Assembly (NCBI GenBank): GCA_000998425.1
Contig: LCDG01000003.1
Span: forward strand, 1,619-65,618
Direction: 5' to 3'
Source of the DNA: Candidatus Nomurabacteria bacterium GW2011_GWC2_42_20
GTDB taxonomy: Bacteria > Patescibacteriota > Minisyncoccia > Phycocordibacterales > UBA1550
Length of the DNA stretch: 64,000 nucleotides
This document shows, one piece after another, positions 44,477-50,759 of this stretch; within the stretch, counting starts at the first letter, position 1, and every line of letters begins with the position of its first letter. A model generated the notes under the pieces. The model was not told the origin of the DNA. It worked only from the letters and a program-made list of their open reading frames with translations, and did no database searches. The translations under genes and the position numbers were made by a program.

Positions 44477-44534
44477 AGGTTAAGTGTACCAAATTTATAG
44501 CAAACAGAATCATCGCATTGCCTGTTTTTGTTCA

Positions 44535-44544
44535 AAGCTGGGAG
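44535..44544. repeat. Distal att core
   Basis: AAGCTGGGAG, identical to 50686-50695. Confidence 0.7.
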
Positions 44545-44601
44545 TTTGGGACGAAGTGGGAACTTTATTACTGATAAAAAACTTTCATATTGTTAATGCC
44601 A

Positions 44602-45687
44602 CTAGCTCTGATCCGGCCAGAATTCGATAATAAAATCATGTTTACTATACGGATATCCATCATATTCTTTTACAAAACCATTATTTTTTACACTTATTTT
44701 TGCCTTCATCAAACTTAACGCCTTTTTTACAATAAAAAGACCTATACCTGTTCCATCTTGAGCTATTCCTGACTTATCTTCTTTTGGCTTTTTAACATTT
44801 CTCCCTTGTCTATTTTCTAGAAATATTGTTTCTTTCTCGTCGTCCTCTATAGATACGCTAGTCATCGATAAAATTAATTTTTTAGATCTTGAAGATAGGT
44901 CAGCTGTAATTTCGATGTCAGTGTCGTGTAAAGCATACTTGCTGATATTGTCAAAAATTTGCCATATGACAGCGTTAAATAAACTGTGAACCACATTTAT
45001 TTTATTTAGTGAGGCTAAATCAGTATTTATATTAATATTTATTTCTATATTTTTTTTCCTCAGTTCATCAACAAAAGGATTAGTTAACCGATACATCGCC
45101 TTTTGAATATTTACAGGAAGAAATGAACCTGTACTATCAGCATACCCACCTATGATTCGAAGAGTTTCTATTTGTGCGTCTAAATCTATTGCCCTGTGAG
45201 ACATCTGACATACATCATTAGCAGCTATGTCTGTGTTTTCCTCAATTCTTCTTTTGACCTCATCCTTAAATTCTATATATGGACGTCCCCTGGCTTTGTC
45301 TGAGATGAGCCTATCAAAATTATCTTTAAATCTTCTTTGAAATTTAATTAGGTTGTGAGAAAATCTTCTTGTAACTGCGTCAAATGATTGCCTTTGACTT
45401 GTTGCAATTTGATTAAATTTAGGAATAAAACCTAAATAAATATTACATGATCTTTGAATCGACCTATTCCCTTGAAATAATTCGTGATCAGCTTTAACGA
45501 TTAAACGCACAGATCCGAGACTATTACTTCTGTATATATTTCGGTATCCTTTTTCAGTAAAATTATCATTTTGTGAAATACTAAACTTTTCTGGAAGTGT
45601 ATGGAGTTGCCCGTATCGTGCTACAACACTACCTTTTTCGTTTTGTAGTTCAAAAAATATTATTCCGTCATTATTATCGAGACTCAT
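44602..45687 (-). CDS. Cytoplasmic histidine-kinase-like (HATPase_c) protein
   Basis: RRFSHNL (H-box-like), QIFDNISKYA (N box), DGTGIGLFIVKK (G2 box); start at MSLDNN overlaps REC gene stop. Confidence 0.75.
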   Translation of the reverse strand: MSLDNNDGIIFFELQNEKGSVVARYGQLHTLPEKFSISQNDNFTEKGYRNIYRSNSLGSVRLIVKADHELFQGNRSIQRSCNIYLGFIPKFNQIATSQRQSFDAVTRRFSHNLIKFQRRFKDNFDRLISDKARGRPYIEFKDEVKRRIEENTDIAANDVCQMSHRAIDLDAQIETLRIIGGYADSTGSFLPVNIQKAMYRLTNPFVDELRKKNIEINININTDLASLNKINVVHSLFNAVIWQIFDNISKYALHDTDIEITADLSSRSKKLILSMTSVSIEDDEKETIFLENRQGRNVKKPKEDKSGIAQDGTGIGLFIVKKALSLMKAKISVKNNGFVKEYDGYPYSKHDFIIEFWPDQS

Positions 45688-46180
45688 GAATTTTCTTTGC
45701 GGCAACTTCTATCTGATCAACAAAAACAAAGGCGTCAGCGTGTTTATCAATCCAGGCATCAGCAATAGAATGAACCTCGCTTCCTGGGATATGCCCTGCG
45801 TATCCTGAACAAAAAATTATAAACTTCTCAGGGTATCTTTTTTTGATACTTTTAAGTAAGCCTATCCCACTCTCTTTTGGAGTTAAGACATTTCCAACTC
45901 CAACATAATCCATAAAGATAATGTCAGCACTTTTTATATCTTCAGCGTCAAAATTTATAACATCATTAATTTGATTAACATTCCAGCCAGCATTTCTAAT
46001 TGTCGACAGAGTAACACCAAAGTCTTCATCGTCTATAAATAAAATTTTGGTTATTTTTTTTATCTCTTCTATCGACAGTACTTTTTTACCTGAATATTTT
46101 GCTTTTATCCACTTTTCAGCCTTATCCATGCCAACAGTTGCCAATATTGTGCAAACTTTAGTTGCTATTGTTTCTATCAT
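45674..46180 (-). CDS. Single-domain response regulator (REC)
   Basis: ILFIDDE, IIFMD, IIFCSG, ADAWIDK. Confidence 0.8.
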   Translation of the reverse strand: MIETIATKVCTILATVGMDKAEKWIKAKYSGKKVLSIEEIKKITKILFIDDEDFGVTLSTIRNAGWNVNQINDVINFDAEDIKSADIIFMDYVGVGNVLTPKESGIGLLKSIKKRYPEKFIIFCSGYAGHIPGSEVHSIADAWIDKHADAFVFVDQIEVAAKKIHESR

Positions 46181-46293
46181 ATATTTATTCTTTAGTTTTT
46201 TTGTGGCTTCACTTTTTGAGAAAGTTCTTTCTTGTTGAATTTCCCATATTTGTTAATGATAGTCTACCACAATGTGGGAGGATACGCATTGTT

Positions 46294-46788
46294 TTAAGGA
46301 GTAATTTTAGAATCGATCTGTGTTTTTAAATCCATTTCTTTTGGAATAGAGGTAATATGCAGAATAGGAATACCGCACTGGTTTAGTACTCTATCCACAA
46401 AGCCGTCACGAACCTGCCTCTCTGGTCTTTGGTGTGTGTAATCATCGAGTTCAATGACAAGAACAGGCGAAATATTTTGTTTATCGAAAAGCACAAAGTC
46501 TACTGATTTTTGGTCTATTTTATTTCTGTATCCACCCCTAAGAGAGCCTTTACCTTCAAGCATTACGATTTTATCAAGAGCAAGTTGTGGAAAAATGTAA
46601 TATTTACCATCAACAGCTCGTTCAAGAACACTCAAAAATTCTCGCTCTGCACGAGTAAGTAACCATGTCTTTTTTGAATACGGAAGCCATTCATCTTTTT
46701 CGTTTACCCTCCCACCTTTTCTCGTTAATTCGCCCACAACAAATCCAACAACCGCAACGATGACAGCAAATATAACAAGATTATTCAT
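46294..46788 (-). CDS. DUF2726-type membrane-anchored PD-(D/E)xK-like protein
   Basis: LLT.AE..F...L, IFPQ, KSVDFVL.D, VIELDD..H, RD.FV......GIP.L.I. Confidence 0.8.
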   Translation of the reverse strand: MNNLVIFAVIVAVVGFVVGELTRKGGRVNEKDEWLPYSKKTWLLTRAEREFLSVLERAVDGKYYIFPQLALDKIVMLEGKGSLRGGYRNKIDQKSVDFVLFDKQNISPVLVIELDDYTHQRPERQVRDGFVDRVLNQCGIPILHITSIPKEMDLKTQIDSKITP

Positions 46789-47341
46789 GGTTAATATTAT
46801 CTAGAATTATTTTTGCTTCCGCAAGCAAATTTTTAGTTACGCTTAGGTTCCATGCTCGCATCGTGCTATGCCATTTCCGGTATTTAAGAAATTGCTCCCA
46901 TGTTAATTCGATTATTCTTTTAGGTTTATAATTCTTAAATATTTGCACAATAATTACATATTCAAATTTCTTTTCTAGCTGATTAATGTCATTATTATCT
47001 CCGCACCCATAAAATACACCAGTGGTAGTTCCTGGCTCCGAAACTGTTTTAATACTATACCTTTCTCCTTTGCGGCTTAACGCATCAACATTTTGAGTAC
47101 CTTCTGGTGCAGCTTGTAATTTTGACAAGCCAGCTATGAAATTATAAGTTTCTACCGCCAAAAATTCCCCTCTCTCGCCAACCATATTGTTTGTTCTTGC
47201 TAGGTTACGTCTCCTCAACTCTTGTTGGGTTTCACCGTAGTTTAGCCACAACTCCTCATTGTCTAATTGACCTAGATTTATTTTGTTCAAATCTTTATCA
47301 TGAGTAGAATTCTTCTCCTTTTTATTAGTTTCTATTCCCAT
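46781..47341 (-). CDS. Restriction-endonuclease-like PD-(D/E)xK protein
   Basis: NN.VGERGE...VDA...GERYSIK catalytic-type spacing. Confidence 0.6.
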   Translation of the reverse strand: MGIETNKKEKNSTHDKDLNKINLGQLDNEELWLNYGETQQELRRRNLARTNNMVGERGEFLAVETYNFIAGLSKLQAAPEGTQNVDALSRKGERYSIKTVSEPGTTTGVFYGCGDNNDINQLEKKFEYVIIVQIFKNYKPKRIIELTWEQFLKYRKWHSTMRAWNLSVTKNLLAEAKIILDNINHE

Positions 47342-47438
47342 AGCATTACTCTTACATATCCCATTTACTTAGTCCAGCAGAAAAGTGCCATCCTCAATAT
47401 CTTCTTGCTTGCAGAAACCGTATGATACATAATTTAAC

Positions 47439-47528
47439 TATGCCTGCGGGCGAGAGTTTTTTCGACTGTCGATTACCTAAATTGAAGGCAGGCATAACAA
47501 AATAGCTCTCATAACTGAGGGCTTTTTT
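47439..47528 (+). ncRNA. Candidate small RNA unit 1 in island (alternatively encodes a 21-aa leaderless peptide)
   Basis: TTGCTT-17-CATAAT promoter; TATGCCTGC/GCAGGCATA closing stem; terminator AGCTCTCA/TGAGGGCT plus T-run. Confidence 0.55.
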
Positions 47529-47617
47529 GCTGTCTAAAAACCGCAAAAATTCCTATATATCTAATGGATTTACATAGCGACCGCTTGCTATCATTAGCAA
47601 GTTAGTGTATTATCAAA

Positions 47618-47764
47618 TTGTAGCTTGACGTCAGAAAATTTCTATCGGCTTGCTGCGGGCATCAATAAAACGATGTACCTATGAGCGAAATGACACATTG
47701 TGTCTGCCGTCGCTCCGAGCTACAAATATAAGCGTCACCTCAACGGGTGGCGCTTTTATTTTTT
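47618..47764 (+). ncRNA. Candidate small RNA unit 2 in island
   Basis: TTGCTA-17-TATTAT promoter; TTGTAGCT/AGCTACAA closing stem; internal hairpins; terminator 47730-47755 plus T-run. Confidence 0.6.
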
Positions 47765-48208
47765 CTTCTTATTTTTCTTAAAATGAACTGAAATTATCTC
47801 AAGCTTCTCGTCTTGTAGTTCAAGGAGAACACGCAGTGACGGTTTCCCGACATGAGAGTAATCTTTTATATAGAAATGTTTTATGGGTGGCTCATATTCG
47901 TAAAAATCAAAATGAGTGATGGTTTCCTGCAGGTTATCTATAGCAAAAAATACAGCCGTCAAAGTCTGCTCTGCTGTGTGATTCTTGCTGAATTCTTTTT
48001 TGCGACTTTCAACAAAATGCTTCAAGGACTTGCGCGAAATATAAACTCTTATATTTTTATGAGGGTGACCTTTATGTTTAGACCCTCGAACGTCAAAGGC
48101 TCGTATTAGCTCAGTATGTTTTTCTATGAAGGATCCATGATCGAGATCGTAATACTCCCTCATTAGCTTTTTTATTTTATTTAATCTTCTTGGAATACTC
48201 GCTATCAT
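47756..48208 (-). CDS. Hypothetical protein, possible BECR-fold (barnase/EndoU/colicin/RelE-like) RNase
   Basis: VYISRKSLKHF...IDNL.ETI...D...HFYIK...LRVLLE...IISVHF pattern; basic tail. Confidence 0.5.
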   Translation of the reverse strand: MIASIPRRLNKIKKLMREYYDLDHGSFIEKHTELIRAFDVRGSKHKGHPHKNIRVYISRKSLKHFVESRKKEFSKNHTAEQTLTAVFFAIDNLQETITHFDFYEYEPPIKHFYIKDYSHVGKPSLRVLLELQDEKLEIISVHFKKNKKKK

Positions 48209-48403
48209 AATTGCTCATATTACCATTTTTGACGCCTTGCAGGAATTTTCACGGTTTTGCGTCCATAACAGTGAAAAAGTACTCGAAAATACAACTTTTC
48301 ACGGTTATTACATTGAAGAAAAATTTTTGTTTACCATAATTTCAAAATATGATATATTAGAAGAGCTTGAAGCGTATCGAGTGTAGGCATGTGACGGCAT
48401 CAC

Positions 48404-48631
48404 ATGCGAAAAAATTCACTGCATTCTCTACCCCTTACTTCAAGGGGTGTTTCGAGTTTCAAATTCTCACAGGAACTCATCGAGGAAACAATTCAGTGCT
48501 TTAGAGAGGAGAATACTGAAGATATCTCTCCCGAAACCGCAAACGAGTATCTCAACTCGCTTTCGGGTTTTTTCCTTGCGCTTGCTGACAATCCATCCCC
48601 TCATCCAAAAGATGAGAACGGGGATGTTTGA
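48404..48631 (+). CDS. Small acidic helical hypothetical protein of the element
   Basis: FSQELIEETIQCFREE...DIS.E.ANEYL..L; upstream of putative rep and recombinase genes. Confidence 0.55.
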   Translation: MRKNSLHSLPLTSRGVSSFKFSQELIEETIQCFREENTEDISPETANEYLNSLSGFFLALADNPSPHPKDENGDV

Positions 48632-48644
48632 TGTACCTATATAA

Positions 48645-48692
48645 ATGCACGCTACTTTCTCGATCCTTAAGGGACGAGAAAGTAGCGTGCAT
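48645..48692. repeat. 18-bp perfect inverted repeat
   Basis: ATGCACGCTACTTTCTCG-12nt-CGAGAAAGTAGCGTGCAT. Confidence 0.85.
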
Positions 48693-48701
48693 AAGTCAAT
48701 T

Positions 48702-49178
48702 ATGAAAAAGAAGCAACCAAGTTATATAAAACTCTACCGTGCCGACCTTAGTGCCCCGCACATCAAGAACCTCTCTGATCGCGAGTTTAGGCTTTGGGTT
48801 GTCTTAAAAGTTCTTGCTGGTTGGGATCCACGACACGAGGAACACTTCATGGTCGTAAAAAGTTCAATCAGAGACTTGCAAGCGAGCCACCTTCCTACAT
48901 GGAAAAGTTCAGGAAAGTTTAGCTTAACGATTAACCAACTGATTGAGAAAGATATGATTAAGCGCATAGGTGTAGGGAAAATGAAACTTTTGAATCCTGC
49001 TCTACGAGAAGAACAAGATTTTCTTCTCAAGGAACAAAGTGTTCTTCTGGAAGAAAATCTTGTTTCGCAGAAAGAACGGGAACGGGTCAACGAAAAGCTT
49101 CAGGACATCAAAAACCTGCTTGCAAATAACGGTATTTTGAGAAAGCGCGAAAATAATATTCCGCCTAAAGAAATATAA
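48702..49178 (+). CDS. Putative winged-HTH replication-initiator-like protein
   Basis: YIKLYR...LSDREFRLWVVL..LA.W...I.QLIEK.MI.R resembles phage replisome-organiser N-termini; start moved past the hairpin to ATG 48702. Confidence 0.5.
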   Translation: MKKKQPSYIKLYRADLSAPHIKNLSDREFRLWVVLKVLAGWDPRHEEHFMVVKSSIRDLQASHLPTWKSSGKFSLTINQLIEKDMIKRIGVGKMKLLNPALREEQDFLLKEQSVLLEENLVSQKERERVNEKLQDIKNLLANNGILRKRENNIPPKEI

Positions 49179-49239
49179 AGAAAAAAATGAAACTTAAACA
49201 AATATTGCTTCATTTAACCAAGGGGGCTATAGTAATTCC

Positions 49240-50718
49240 ATGAAATACATTATCTACTGTCGAAAATCCACGGAAAGCGAAGACAGACAACTTCTGTCAC
49301 TGGATGCCCAAGAACGGGAGCTTTTGGATATTGCTAATAAGCACAGCCTAGAAATTACAAAAGTTTTTCGCGAGAGCATGTCTGCCAAAGCACCTGGTCG
49401 CCCTATCTTTGACGAGATGATGAAAATCATTGAAAAAGGAAGAGCAGATGCTATCCTCTGTTGGAAAATTGATCGTCTCACGCGTAATCCTGTTGATGGC
49501 GGAAAAATTCAGTGGCTCCTGCAAACGAACAAGATAAAGTGCATTCAGACTTTCGAGAAAAGCTACTTCCCTAATGACAATGTTCTGCTCATGAGTATCG
49601 AGCAAGCAATGGCGAATCAATACATTCGAGACTTGAGCGTGAATGTAAAGCGTGGGCTACGAGAAAAATTGCTTCGTGGAGAATGGCCAAACAAGGCACC
49701 TTTTGGATATACAAACGACAAGGGGTCTAAGTTTGTCATTCCTGATCCTGTTCGTTCAAAATATGTTTCTCGTGCTTTTGAAATCTACCTCACGGGCTCA
49801 CATGGCACAAAAGATATTTCAGAAATTCTTTACAAGGAGGGTTTACGCACGGCTACAGGAAAGAAAATTTTGAAGGGGCGCATTCATAGCATTCTTTCCT
49901 CAATTTTCTACACGGGCATCATGGAAAAAGAAGGAAAATATTATGAAGGCAAACATAAGCCACTCATCTCAAAAGAAACTTTTGAGAAAGCTCAAGATCT
50001 TATGCACGGCCGTTCACGACCCCGCCCACAACGATTATTCTTCCCTCTTCGTGGCTTTCTCAAGTGTGAAAATTGCGGATGCGCCCTCACTGCATCTCTC
50101 AAAAAAGGTCATCACTATTACTACTGCACGGGAAACAGAGACTTTTGCAATGAACACAAAAGCTACATGCGAGAGGTGTACCTATATGAGAAAGTTTCTG
50201 CTGTCCTCGAATCAATTCATTTTTCAGAACGCAAGATCGAGATTATGTATCAGGCGGCCAAGGAGAGACTCGAGTTTGATAATGGGTACAACAACCAGAC
50301 TATATCCACCCTCCAAAACCATTTAAAATCGCTTGAGACGAAAGAATCCCTTTTGCTCGACACTTTCCTCGCTGAACAGATTACAAAGGATTTATACGAC
50401 GCTAAAATCCTCGCTTTGCGTAATGAGCGAGTTCAAGTTACCAAGCAACTCAAAGAAGCCGAATCACGACAACCTGTCGCGCTGTTGGAACCTACCAAAA
50501 ATGCTTTTTTAACCGCTAGTAGAGCCTCAAAAGAGTTTTTAGAAGGCGACGATTTGAAGAAAAGAAATATCCTAGAAAGTCTCTGTTGGAACCTTTCGCT
50601 CAAAGAGAAAAATATCCATACAGTGTCGCTCAAAAGTCCTTTCGACATCATGTCAAAAGCATCGAAAAATGACGGTTTGTGCACTAAGCTGGGAGGCTTG
50701 GAATCGAACCAAGATTGA
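49240..50718 (+). CDS. Large serine recombinase (integrase)
   Basis: YCRKSTE, SL.AQ, E..SA...GRP.F, DRLTRN, recombinase domain (APFGY), Zn ribbon CENC/YYYC, coiled coil; ends inside tRNA (LGGLESNQD*). Confidence 0.93.
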   Translation: MKYIIYCRKSTESEDRQLLSLDAQERELLDIANKHSLEITKVFRESMSAKAPGRPIFDEMMKIIEKGRADAILCWKIDRLTRNPVDGGKIQWLLQTNKIKCIQTFEKSYFPNDNVLLMSIEQAMANQYIRDLSVNVKRGLREKLLRGEWPNKAPFGYTNDKGSKFVIPDPVRSKYVSRAFEIYLTGSHGTKDISEILYKEGLRTATGKKILKGRIHSILSSIFYTGIMEKEGKYYEGKHKPLISKETFEKAQDLMHGRSRPRPQRLFFPLRGFLKCENCGCALTASLKKGHHYYYCTGNRDFCNEHKSYMREVYLYEKVSAVLESIHFSERKIEIMYQAAKERLEFDNGYNNQTISTLQNHLKSLETKESLLLDTFLAEQITKDLYDAKILALRNERVQVTKQLKEAESRQPVALLEPTKNAFLTASRASKEFLEGDDLKKRNILESLCWNLSLKEKNIHTVSLKSPFDIMSKASKNDGLCTKLGGLESNQD

Positions 50719-50759
50719 CGGCTTCAAAGGCCGCTGTCCTACCATTAGACGATCTCCCA
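50689..50759 (-). tRNA. tRNA-Gln (UUG)
   Basis: TGGGAGATCGTCTAATGGTAGGACAGCGGCCTTTGAAGCCGTCAATCTTGGTTCGATTCCAAGCCTCCCAG; cloverleaf, anticodon TTG, CCA not encoded. Confidence 0.95.

Follow-up and report, generated by a model that had tools for sequence, protein, structure and literature searches.

Two unrelated structured RNA families are paired with predicted colicin-like BECR RNases in Patescibacteria

A short intergenic gap in the genome of Candidatus Nomurabacteria bacterium GW2011_GWC2_42_20 holds two small transcription units, unit 1 and unit 2, which are copies of two unrelated, covarying RNA families, RNA-A and RNA-B, that occur nearly one-to-one with two unrelated families of basic proteins of ca. 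150 aa, NucA and NucB. Both RNA families are supported by covariation and are absent from Rfam. We favour, with modest confidence, the reading that each unit specifies a folded RNA that likely inhibits, by binding, a predicted BECR RNase encoded tail-to-tail with it, as in a type III-like toxin-antitoxin (TA) system; unit 2 would work with the adjoining 150-aa gene, and an orphan status is likely for unit 1.

The window, that is, the whole stretch of 64,000 nucleotides that was analysed, comes from a 679-kb genome (92.6% complete) whose relatives are Patescibacteria/CPR. Both units lie in an island with the following landmarks:

44519..50759: island of ca. 6.2 kb, at tRNA-Gln(TTG)
50688-50759, minus strand: tRNA-Gln(TTG), island border
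49240-50718: serine recombinase, within the island
44519-44551: copy of the tRNA 3' end, far island border
46781..47341, minus strand: 186-aa gene, methyl-directed restriction enzyme (PADLOC mREase_II, E 1.6e-55)
47756..48208, minus strand: NucB (150 aa), the protein paired with RNA-B, predicted to be a colicin-like BECR RNase (PBECR3-like)

The gap between the last two genes, both on the minus strand, measures 414 bp (47342-47755) and not the 415 bp given in the first-pass annotation, which had correctly placed in it two plus-strand promoter-to-terminator units with their boxes, stems and terminators. The same annotation had proposed the 186-aa flanking protein as an RNA partner, which did not hold: none of 62 RNA-bearing loci carries a homologue, and we found no copy in the 400 other genomes of the class that were searched. 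This restriction enzyme is thus an island neighbour outside the RNA modules. It has 672 relatives and, since most of those listed are 164–175 aa long, its true start may be ca. 18 codons downstream. Elsewhere in the island, an AT-rich pair on the minus strand (44602-46180) comprises a histidine-kinase-like ATPase and a response-regulator-like ORF, with a DUF2726 gene (46294-46788) adjoining it, and a near-perfect loopless 24-bp hairpin (48645-48692) at the start of a 177-aa ORF might serve the element as an origin or a site of processing. The tRNA was the only gathering-level match of the window in Rfam 15. The Rfam search suggested in the first-pass annotation likewise returned no match in 18 loci with intact RNA-A or RNA-B, and otherwise only hits far below threshold.

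Unit 2, or RNA-B, has these elements, all on the plus strand:

47585..47613: sigma-70-type promoter TTGCTA-17-TATTAT (motif scan)
47618..47725: RNA-B core of ca. 110 nt (covariation; model R2, 118 bits, the window copy being part of the R2 training set)
47618-47625/47718-47725: closing stem
47621-47627/47716-47722: P1, covarying
47629-47634/47653-47657: P2, hypothetical, invariant or nearly so
47659-47663/47672-47676: P3, covarying
47683-47688/47710-47715: P4, covarying
47692-47696/47700-47704: P5, covarying
47646-47649/47706-47709: pseudoknot, hypothetical, invariant or nearly so
47730..47764: intrinsic terminator, usable from both strands

The internal helices that had been named for this unit are present in the sequence, and an alignment of the window copy with 16 distinct relatives supports the fold: 18 of the 32 proposed pairs vary on both sides and 97.6% of the cells pair, values reached by none of 500 shuffles. 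Without its terminator, unit 2 folds better than all 200 shuffles on the plus strand (z -4.4; minus strand, z -2.1). A promoter matching at least 8/12 positions occurs at the same place in 12 of 17 relatives, versus 16% of shuffles; the operator-like inverted repeat reported over the -35 box, in turn, is not conserved in the 17 relatives. The U-tract of the terminator reaches into the final codons of the 150-aa gene.

The pairing of RNA-B with this gene recurs. We found 40 relatives of the NucB protein, and a metagenome scan yielded 19 NucB loci, 17 of which carry RNA-B on the opposite strand just beyond the stop codon, i.e. tail-to-tail. In the other two, the contig ends with the gene (L161) or the gene is cut after residue ca. 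109 (L165). The claim of an RNA-nuclease module, with covarying RNAs beside homologues of the 150-aa protein, was thus supported for unit 2, and was not supported for unit 1 and its flanking protein. The RNA-B family is rare: in an RNA-first pattern search, 5 of 391 genomes matched, including the source genome, versus 1 with the reversed pattern as control, and of the four other matches only that in L276 was true (86.5 bits), with a NucB relative adjoining. NucB itself gave, across the phylum (391 genomes), only three weak matches inside long proteins, which lacked RNA-B. One NucB gene has a 332-aa reverse transcriptase gene directly upstream (L152:1008-2003), an arrangement seen once among the loci scanned.

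Relatives of RNA-A were first revealed by three short BLAST matches among 401 genomes. A pattern scan with one genome per species then gave 74 matches, 40 of which passed a 5'-strand filter; three further matches were true by the model and the remainder were chance or partial. RNA-A is a three-way junction of ca. 57 nt in which 9 of 18 pairs vary on both sides (27 diverse members); among 500 shuffles, none reached its covariation score and 10 reached its pair count. Promoters with at least an 8/12 match precede 78 of 88 relatives, versus 14% of shuffles. The RNA-A partner, NucA, is a family of ca. 155 aa with 1688 clusters, present in 38 of the 43 RNA-A loci tested. Starting from the gene instead, we located NucA in 45 of the 401 genomes sampled from the class, with 55 places in all; 53 places were examined, leaving 51 informative copies after setting aside one at a contig end and one gene listed as two fragments. 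RNA-A lies beside all 51, tail-to-tail in 50 and upstream on the same strand in one. Ten of these 51 NucA genes look broken (four in-frame stops, two frameshifts, four partial matches) and still have an RNA beside them. The loci of both families are mutually related rather than independent, and the co-divergence of proteins and RNAs (Spearman 0.75 and 0.35) is expected from linkage, so we do not count it as support.

In L247 and L504, two RNA-A/nuclease modules of different subfamilies lie close to each other, each keeping its own RNA; in the L247 tandem the proteins are 37% identical and the RNAs 87%. Distant NucA subfamilies (L502, L504, L506, L509 and L510) have divergent RNA-A variants of 25–43 bits, indicating that the RNA family is wider than modelled.

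Unit 1 of the window comprises:

47405..47433, plus strand: promoter TTGCTT-17-CATAAT (8/12 match, under the 9/12 threshold of the scan)
47440..47495, plus strand: RNA-A copy, three-way junction (model R1, 28.5 bits)
47439-47447/47488-47496, plus strand: closing stem, intact
47504..47528, plus strand: terminator
47534..47539, minus strand: Phe codon and stop, candidate remnant of the RNA-A partner gene (as at the gene end of the nearest relatives)

Without its terminator, unit 1 also folds on the plus strand better than all 200 shuffles (z -4.0; minus strand, z -2.2). Nevertheless, it is likely a decayed orphan left after the loss of its own nuclease gene, because NucA was not found in the 92.6% complete assembly, its score is low, its centre has diverged and a Phe-stop remnant may persist. 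Its 28.5 bits compare with 60–68 bits for the 41 paired rows, and among 41 highly conserved columns it deviates at 9, as against two at most in 33 relatives. The RNA-A core is strongly constrained beside a gene, with 0–5 differences in 44 positions among the six nearest relatives, and relaxed in unit 1, which differs from them at 13–14. Its terminator divergence is ordinary; the terminators of paired relatives differ at 4–15 positions. The unit 1 terminator most resembles those of a subfamily whose protein ends in Asp-Phe/Tyr-stop. The Phe codon and stop at 47534..47539, just 6 bp and weak alone, are likely what is left of the lost gene; indeed, several RNA orphans retain the last codons of a nuclease gene. 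Of six RNA-A orphans, three score below 50 bits, versus none of the 41 paired rows. The lost partner gene was apparently replaced by the RNA-B module.

The first-pass annotation had instead seen the units as twins, and the corresponding explanation is that the two RNAs are related, share a motif and work with both flanking proteins, unit 1 being a functional, re-tuned partner of an island gene. Against pure decay, the promoter, closing stem and terminator of unit 1 are all intact and 17 of its 18 pairs can still form, four of them as G-U; C-to-T drift, however, yields G-U pairs automatically. Within the 679-kb genome the combined motif CTGCGGGC..TACCTA is indeed confined to the two units, but it is complete in 0 of 90 RNA-A and 0 of 17 RNA-B relatives, and with 0 of 107 we rejected it as a functional core. 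The covariance models of the two RNAs do not cross-match at E≤1, a search of 18 NucB metagenome loci found RNA-A in none of them, and the RNA loci, as said, lack the 186-aa gene; we consider this explanation very improbable. The leaderless peptide suggested for unit 1 is not conserved either: its first codon is ATG in 12, GTG in 67 and a non-start codon in 11 of 90 relatives, with ORFs ranging from 12 to 172 aa.

Module layout bears on how the RNA might act. A hairpin lies between the RNA and the stop codon, with the longer T-run on the RNA strand, and such two-way terminators common to the RNA and the convergent gene are conserved. The nuclease genes look mostly leaderless, as judged from a Shine-Dalgarno-like word before only 2 of 69 and 1 of 12 of them and a -10 box immediately before the ATG in 33 of 69 and 6 of 12. 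This convergent arrangement with a shared terminator resembles that of the pAD1 par locus (PMC4147584, as far as its available text describes it), and raises the alternative of a type I-like antitoxin that, as fst/RNAII, would base-pair with the mRNA of the convergent nuclease gene. In RNA-B, complementarity to the mRNA slightly exceeds that of shuffles (mean z of -1.1; longest perfect match of 9.0 nt versus 7.8 nt), at scattered places, and read-through of the weaker gene-strand terminator could yield a long duplex. Yet the overlap is confined to the terminator, with a median of 36 nt from the RNA-A core to the nuclease stop; 71 A and 14 B pairs revealed no conserved pairing site, the sites being scattered; the RNA-A/mRNA duplex is near shuffles (z -0.3); and the conserved RNA cores are locked in helices. 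Furthermore, L249:1368-1500 holds RNA-A, a terminator and an intact nuclease gene on one strand, the canonical type III order (1 of 51 copies), which implies that the 3' overlap is not required. The lack of a conserved pairing site together with this same-strand order makes antisense control rather improbable. The RNAs had also been proposed as guides; neither RNA-A nor RNA-B has a variable guide segment.

That the elements might be folded single-stranded DNA recombination sites at cassette ends (attC-like), and not RNAs, agrees with the mobility of the modules, which have no recombinase of their own, and with the fact that covariation also arises in DNA hairpins. However, they have a dedicated promoter and terminator, each is attached to one gene family and not to varied cargo, and G-U outnumber A-C cells on the promoter strand by 42:5 and 25:3, an excess favoured in part by structures derived on that same strand. 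This is the least probable of the explanations that we weighed.

If they are RNAs, direct inhibition of the protein is suggested by the tight pairing, the orphan asymmetry and the lack of a conserved antisense site. An inhibitor is favoured over a cofactor because RNAs without a gene are seen and intact nucleases without an RNA are not. Tight pairing and core constraint, on the other hand, would suit equally an RNA that is a required subunit or sensor (cofactor, scaffold or phage-triggered part) of a ribonucleoprotein nuclease. The one-to-one pairing, the invariant unpaired RNA segments, the basic proteins (median pI 9.6–9.7) and the four arms of RNA-B with their possible pseudoknot, elaborate for a simple plug, all agree with such a particle. 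It would predict harmless RNA-less nucleases, though, and there are no intact ones among the 51 + 18 informative copies; BECR domains, moreover, have been characterised as stand-alone protein enzymes in the available text of PMC5512222 and bioRxiv 10.64898/2026.08.28.747851. We therefore regard a cofactor role as unlikely, if the most serious competitor. The orphan asymmetry itself is one of raw counts, with no reference frequency of broken accessory genes for these assemblies, and part of it is expected under any model, since mutations can strike a 460-bp gene at more positions than an RNA of 57–110 nt.

The roles could also be reversed: the RNA would then be the effector, or a precursor of it, which the nuclease would process or destroy. 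The strong RNA conservation and the cutting of structured RNA by BECR RNases would fit, but intact RNAs with promoters persist where the gene is absent or broken, so cells tolerate the RNA by itself, which argues against a toxic RNA. In addition, the RNA decays once orphaned, and its similarity to host tRNA and tmRNA does not exceed that of shuffles (longest shared words of 8–9 nt in both, sequence and not shape being compared). We judge this reading highly unlikely.

Under the inhibitor reading, the RNA would be transcribed separately, from its own promoter to the two-way terminator, and would keep inactive, by direct binding, a predicted BECR RNase that is presumably toxic to its own cell. 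The RNA might perhaps be a tRNA-shaped decoy, which is speculation given that no sequence likeness to tRNA was found. When RNA synthesis stops, through phage shut-off or module loss, the RNA would be the first to decay, and the freed RNase could bring about dormancy-type defence or addiction. This model is borrowed from AvcID, which is activated on transcription shut-off according to the available text of PMC10511110.

NucA and NucB are predicted, from structure models (pLDDT 89.0 and 91.9, respectively), to be colicin-like BECR RNases. The two families do not align with each other (hhalign probability 0.4%). In NucB, K63 and H64 (helix 59-73) and S140 and H142 (strand 135-144) are invariant in 39 of 39 sequences; in NucA, H42 is present in 35 of 35 and S132 in 33 of 35. 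A conserved His in a helix and a Ser on the last strand, plus a His in NucB, fit the PBECR/colicin-like active site, described in the accessible text as a His within the N-terminal helix plus Ser/Thr (and His) on the final strand (PMC5512222; bioRxiv 10.64898/2026.08.28.747851). Fold searches gave weak matches, namely CdiA-CT Kp342 (Z 4.7) and RegB (Z 4.4) for NucA, and ParE (Z 6.3, rmsd 3.1, 87 aligned), CdiA-CT NC101 (Z 5.9) and BrnT (Z 5.8) for NucB, whose top rows are nearly all BECR/RelE-type with Z of 5.2–6.3. Comparison of NucB with PBECR3 clusters gave Atlas features of 0.91 and a TM of 0.62, and its model is also near phage polyvalent-protein domains. Foldseek against the PDB gave no match at E≤0.001, and profile searches of PDB sequences nothing significant. 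NucB had no direct Pfam match, staying below the cut-offs, as did NucA against LPD3 (E 5e-4). Neither protein matched the ToxN, CptN or TenpN families in Pfam, NCBIfam or PADLOC, the nearest families being PBECR3 and LPD3. By analogy with characterised colicin-like BECR members, which cut mostly tRNA (bioRxiv 10.64898/2026.08.28.747851, in its available text), the predicted substrate of NucA and NucB would be tRNA.

The RNA/nuclease module spans ca. 650 bp and is found at many different chromosomal sites; many modules have housekeeping genes on either side and are not part of defence islands. Flanking genes vary, comprising housekeeping genes and some restriction, AbiTii, Fic or integrase genes, and no third protein partner recurs among 85 flanking ORFs from 46 loci. 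Each module has a single RNA copy, and no repeat family links the two units or falls inside them. Both module types were found downstream of dprA (L157, L173 and L196; between dprA and topA in L157 and L173), a possible insertion hot spot. Scans of viral loci, two of which covered 120 of ca. 450 and 120 of ca. 220 stretches, gave no true RNA or protein match among the loci listed, and tblastn gave none in plasmids and phages.

BECR toxins, as described, are neutralised by immunity proteins and, to our knowledge, known protein-binding RNA antitoxins act on ToxN-like RNases or AvcD. We tentatively propose, short of holding it probable, that CPR bacteria use at least two independently evolved multi-helix RNAs as the immunity factor, maybe a tRNA-shaped decoy, of a colicin-like BECR tRNase, in a widespread and unrecognised defence or addiction module. 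If true, RNA would substitute for the immunity proteins used by BECR toxins, and the one-to-one match of two unrelated RNA folds to as many unrelated BECR-like families suggests that inhibition of this fold by RNA arose twice. Such modules may help explain defence in streamlined CPR genomes; being of two parts and ca. 650 bp, they are directly testable in the laboratory, and synthetic biology could use an RNA that naturally inhibits a tRNase as a compact switch.

In the literature searched, which left aside bioRxiv supplements and most subscription journals, there is no description of RNA-A, RNA-B or their modules. The main text of bioRxiv 10.64898/2026.08.28.747851 contains none of the terms 'RNA antitoxin', 'ncRNA', 'small RNA', 'noncoding' and 'CPR'. 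Four motif strings are absent from the eight supplementary files of PMC8040213 that were searched, where 11 of 12 PBECR mentions concern other taxa or contexts. In these supplements, the candidate RNAs HMP2_1217 (Streptococcus) and HMP2_1418 (Capnocytophaga) have PBECR domains within 5 kb, and HMP2_1217 also lists ToxN/TenpN; both could be starting points for finding BECR-RNA pairs in cultured bacteria.

Among known systems, and as far as the available parts of the cited sources describe them, the modules resemble ToxIN, CptIN and TenpIN in combining an RNase gene, a structured non-coding RNA and a terminator, with direct binding as we propose it (PMC13682666, PMC4147584). However, the antitoxins of these systems are tandem pseudoknot repeats, whereas RNA-A and RNA-B are single and non-repeated; their RNA lies upstream in one operon, whereas 50 of 51 NucA and 17 of 17 NucB genes with an RNA are convergent with it and the RNA has its own promoter; and their toxins are of the ToxN, CptN and TenpN families, unlike the BECR-like NucA and NucB. 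In AvcID of Vibrio cholerae, a non-canonical type III system, the antitoxin is one non-repeat RNA that binds the enzyme, as we propose for RNA-A and RNA-B; the enzyme, AvcD, is however a deoxycytidylate deaminase, the RNA, AvcI, measures ca. 300 nt, and we saw no sequence relation (PMC10511110). The type I systems fst/RNAII (pAD1 par) and txpA/RatA share the convergent RNA and toxin genes with a common terminator (PMC4147584), their toxin being a hydrophobic peptide, unlike the predicted enzymes of ca. 150 aa, for which there is no conserved RNA-mRNA site. The fold predicted for NucA and NucB would be that of colicin D, CdiA-CT tRNases, PBECR3 and LPD3 (PMC5512222; bioRxiv 10.64898/2026.08.28.747851); the His in the helix (after Lys in NucB) and the Ser and His on the last strand are shared with the PBECR group, PBECR3 being nearest to NucB. 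Unlike members of that group, NucA and NucB are stand-alone CPR genes paired with an RNA, with no recurring immunity protein or delivery domain. In all, the best reading of these comparisons is a type III-like way of working, but with a new toxin fold and a new layout.
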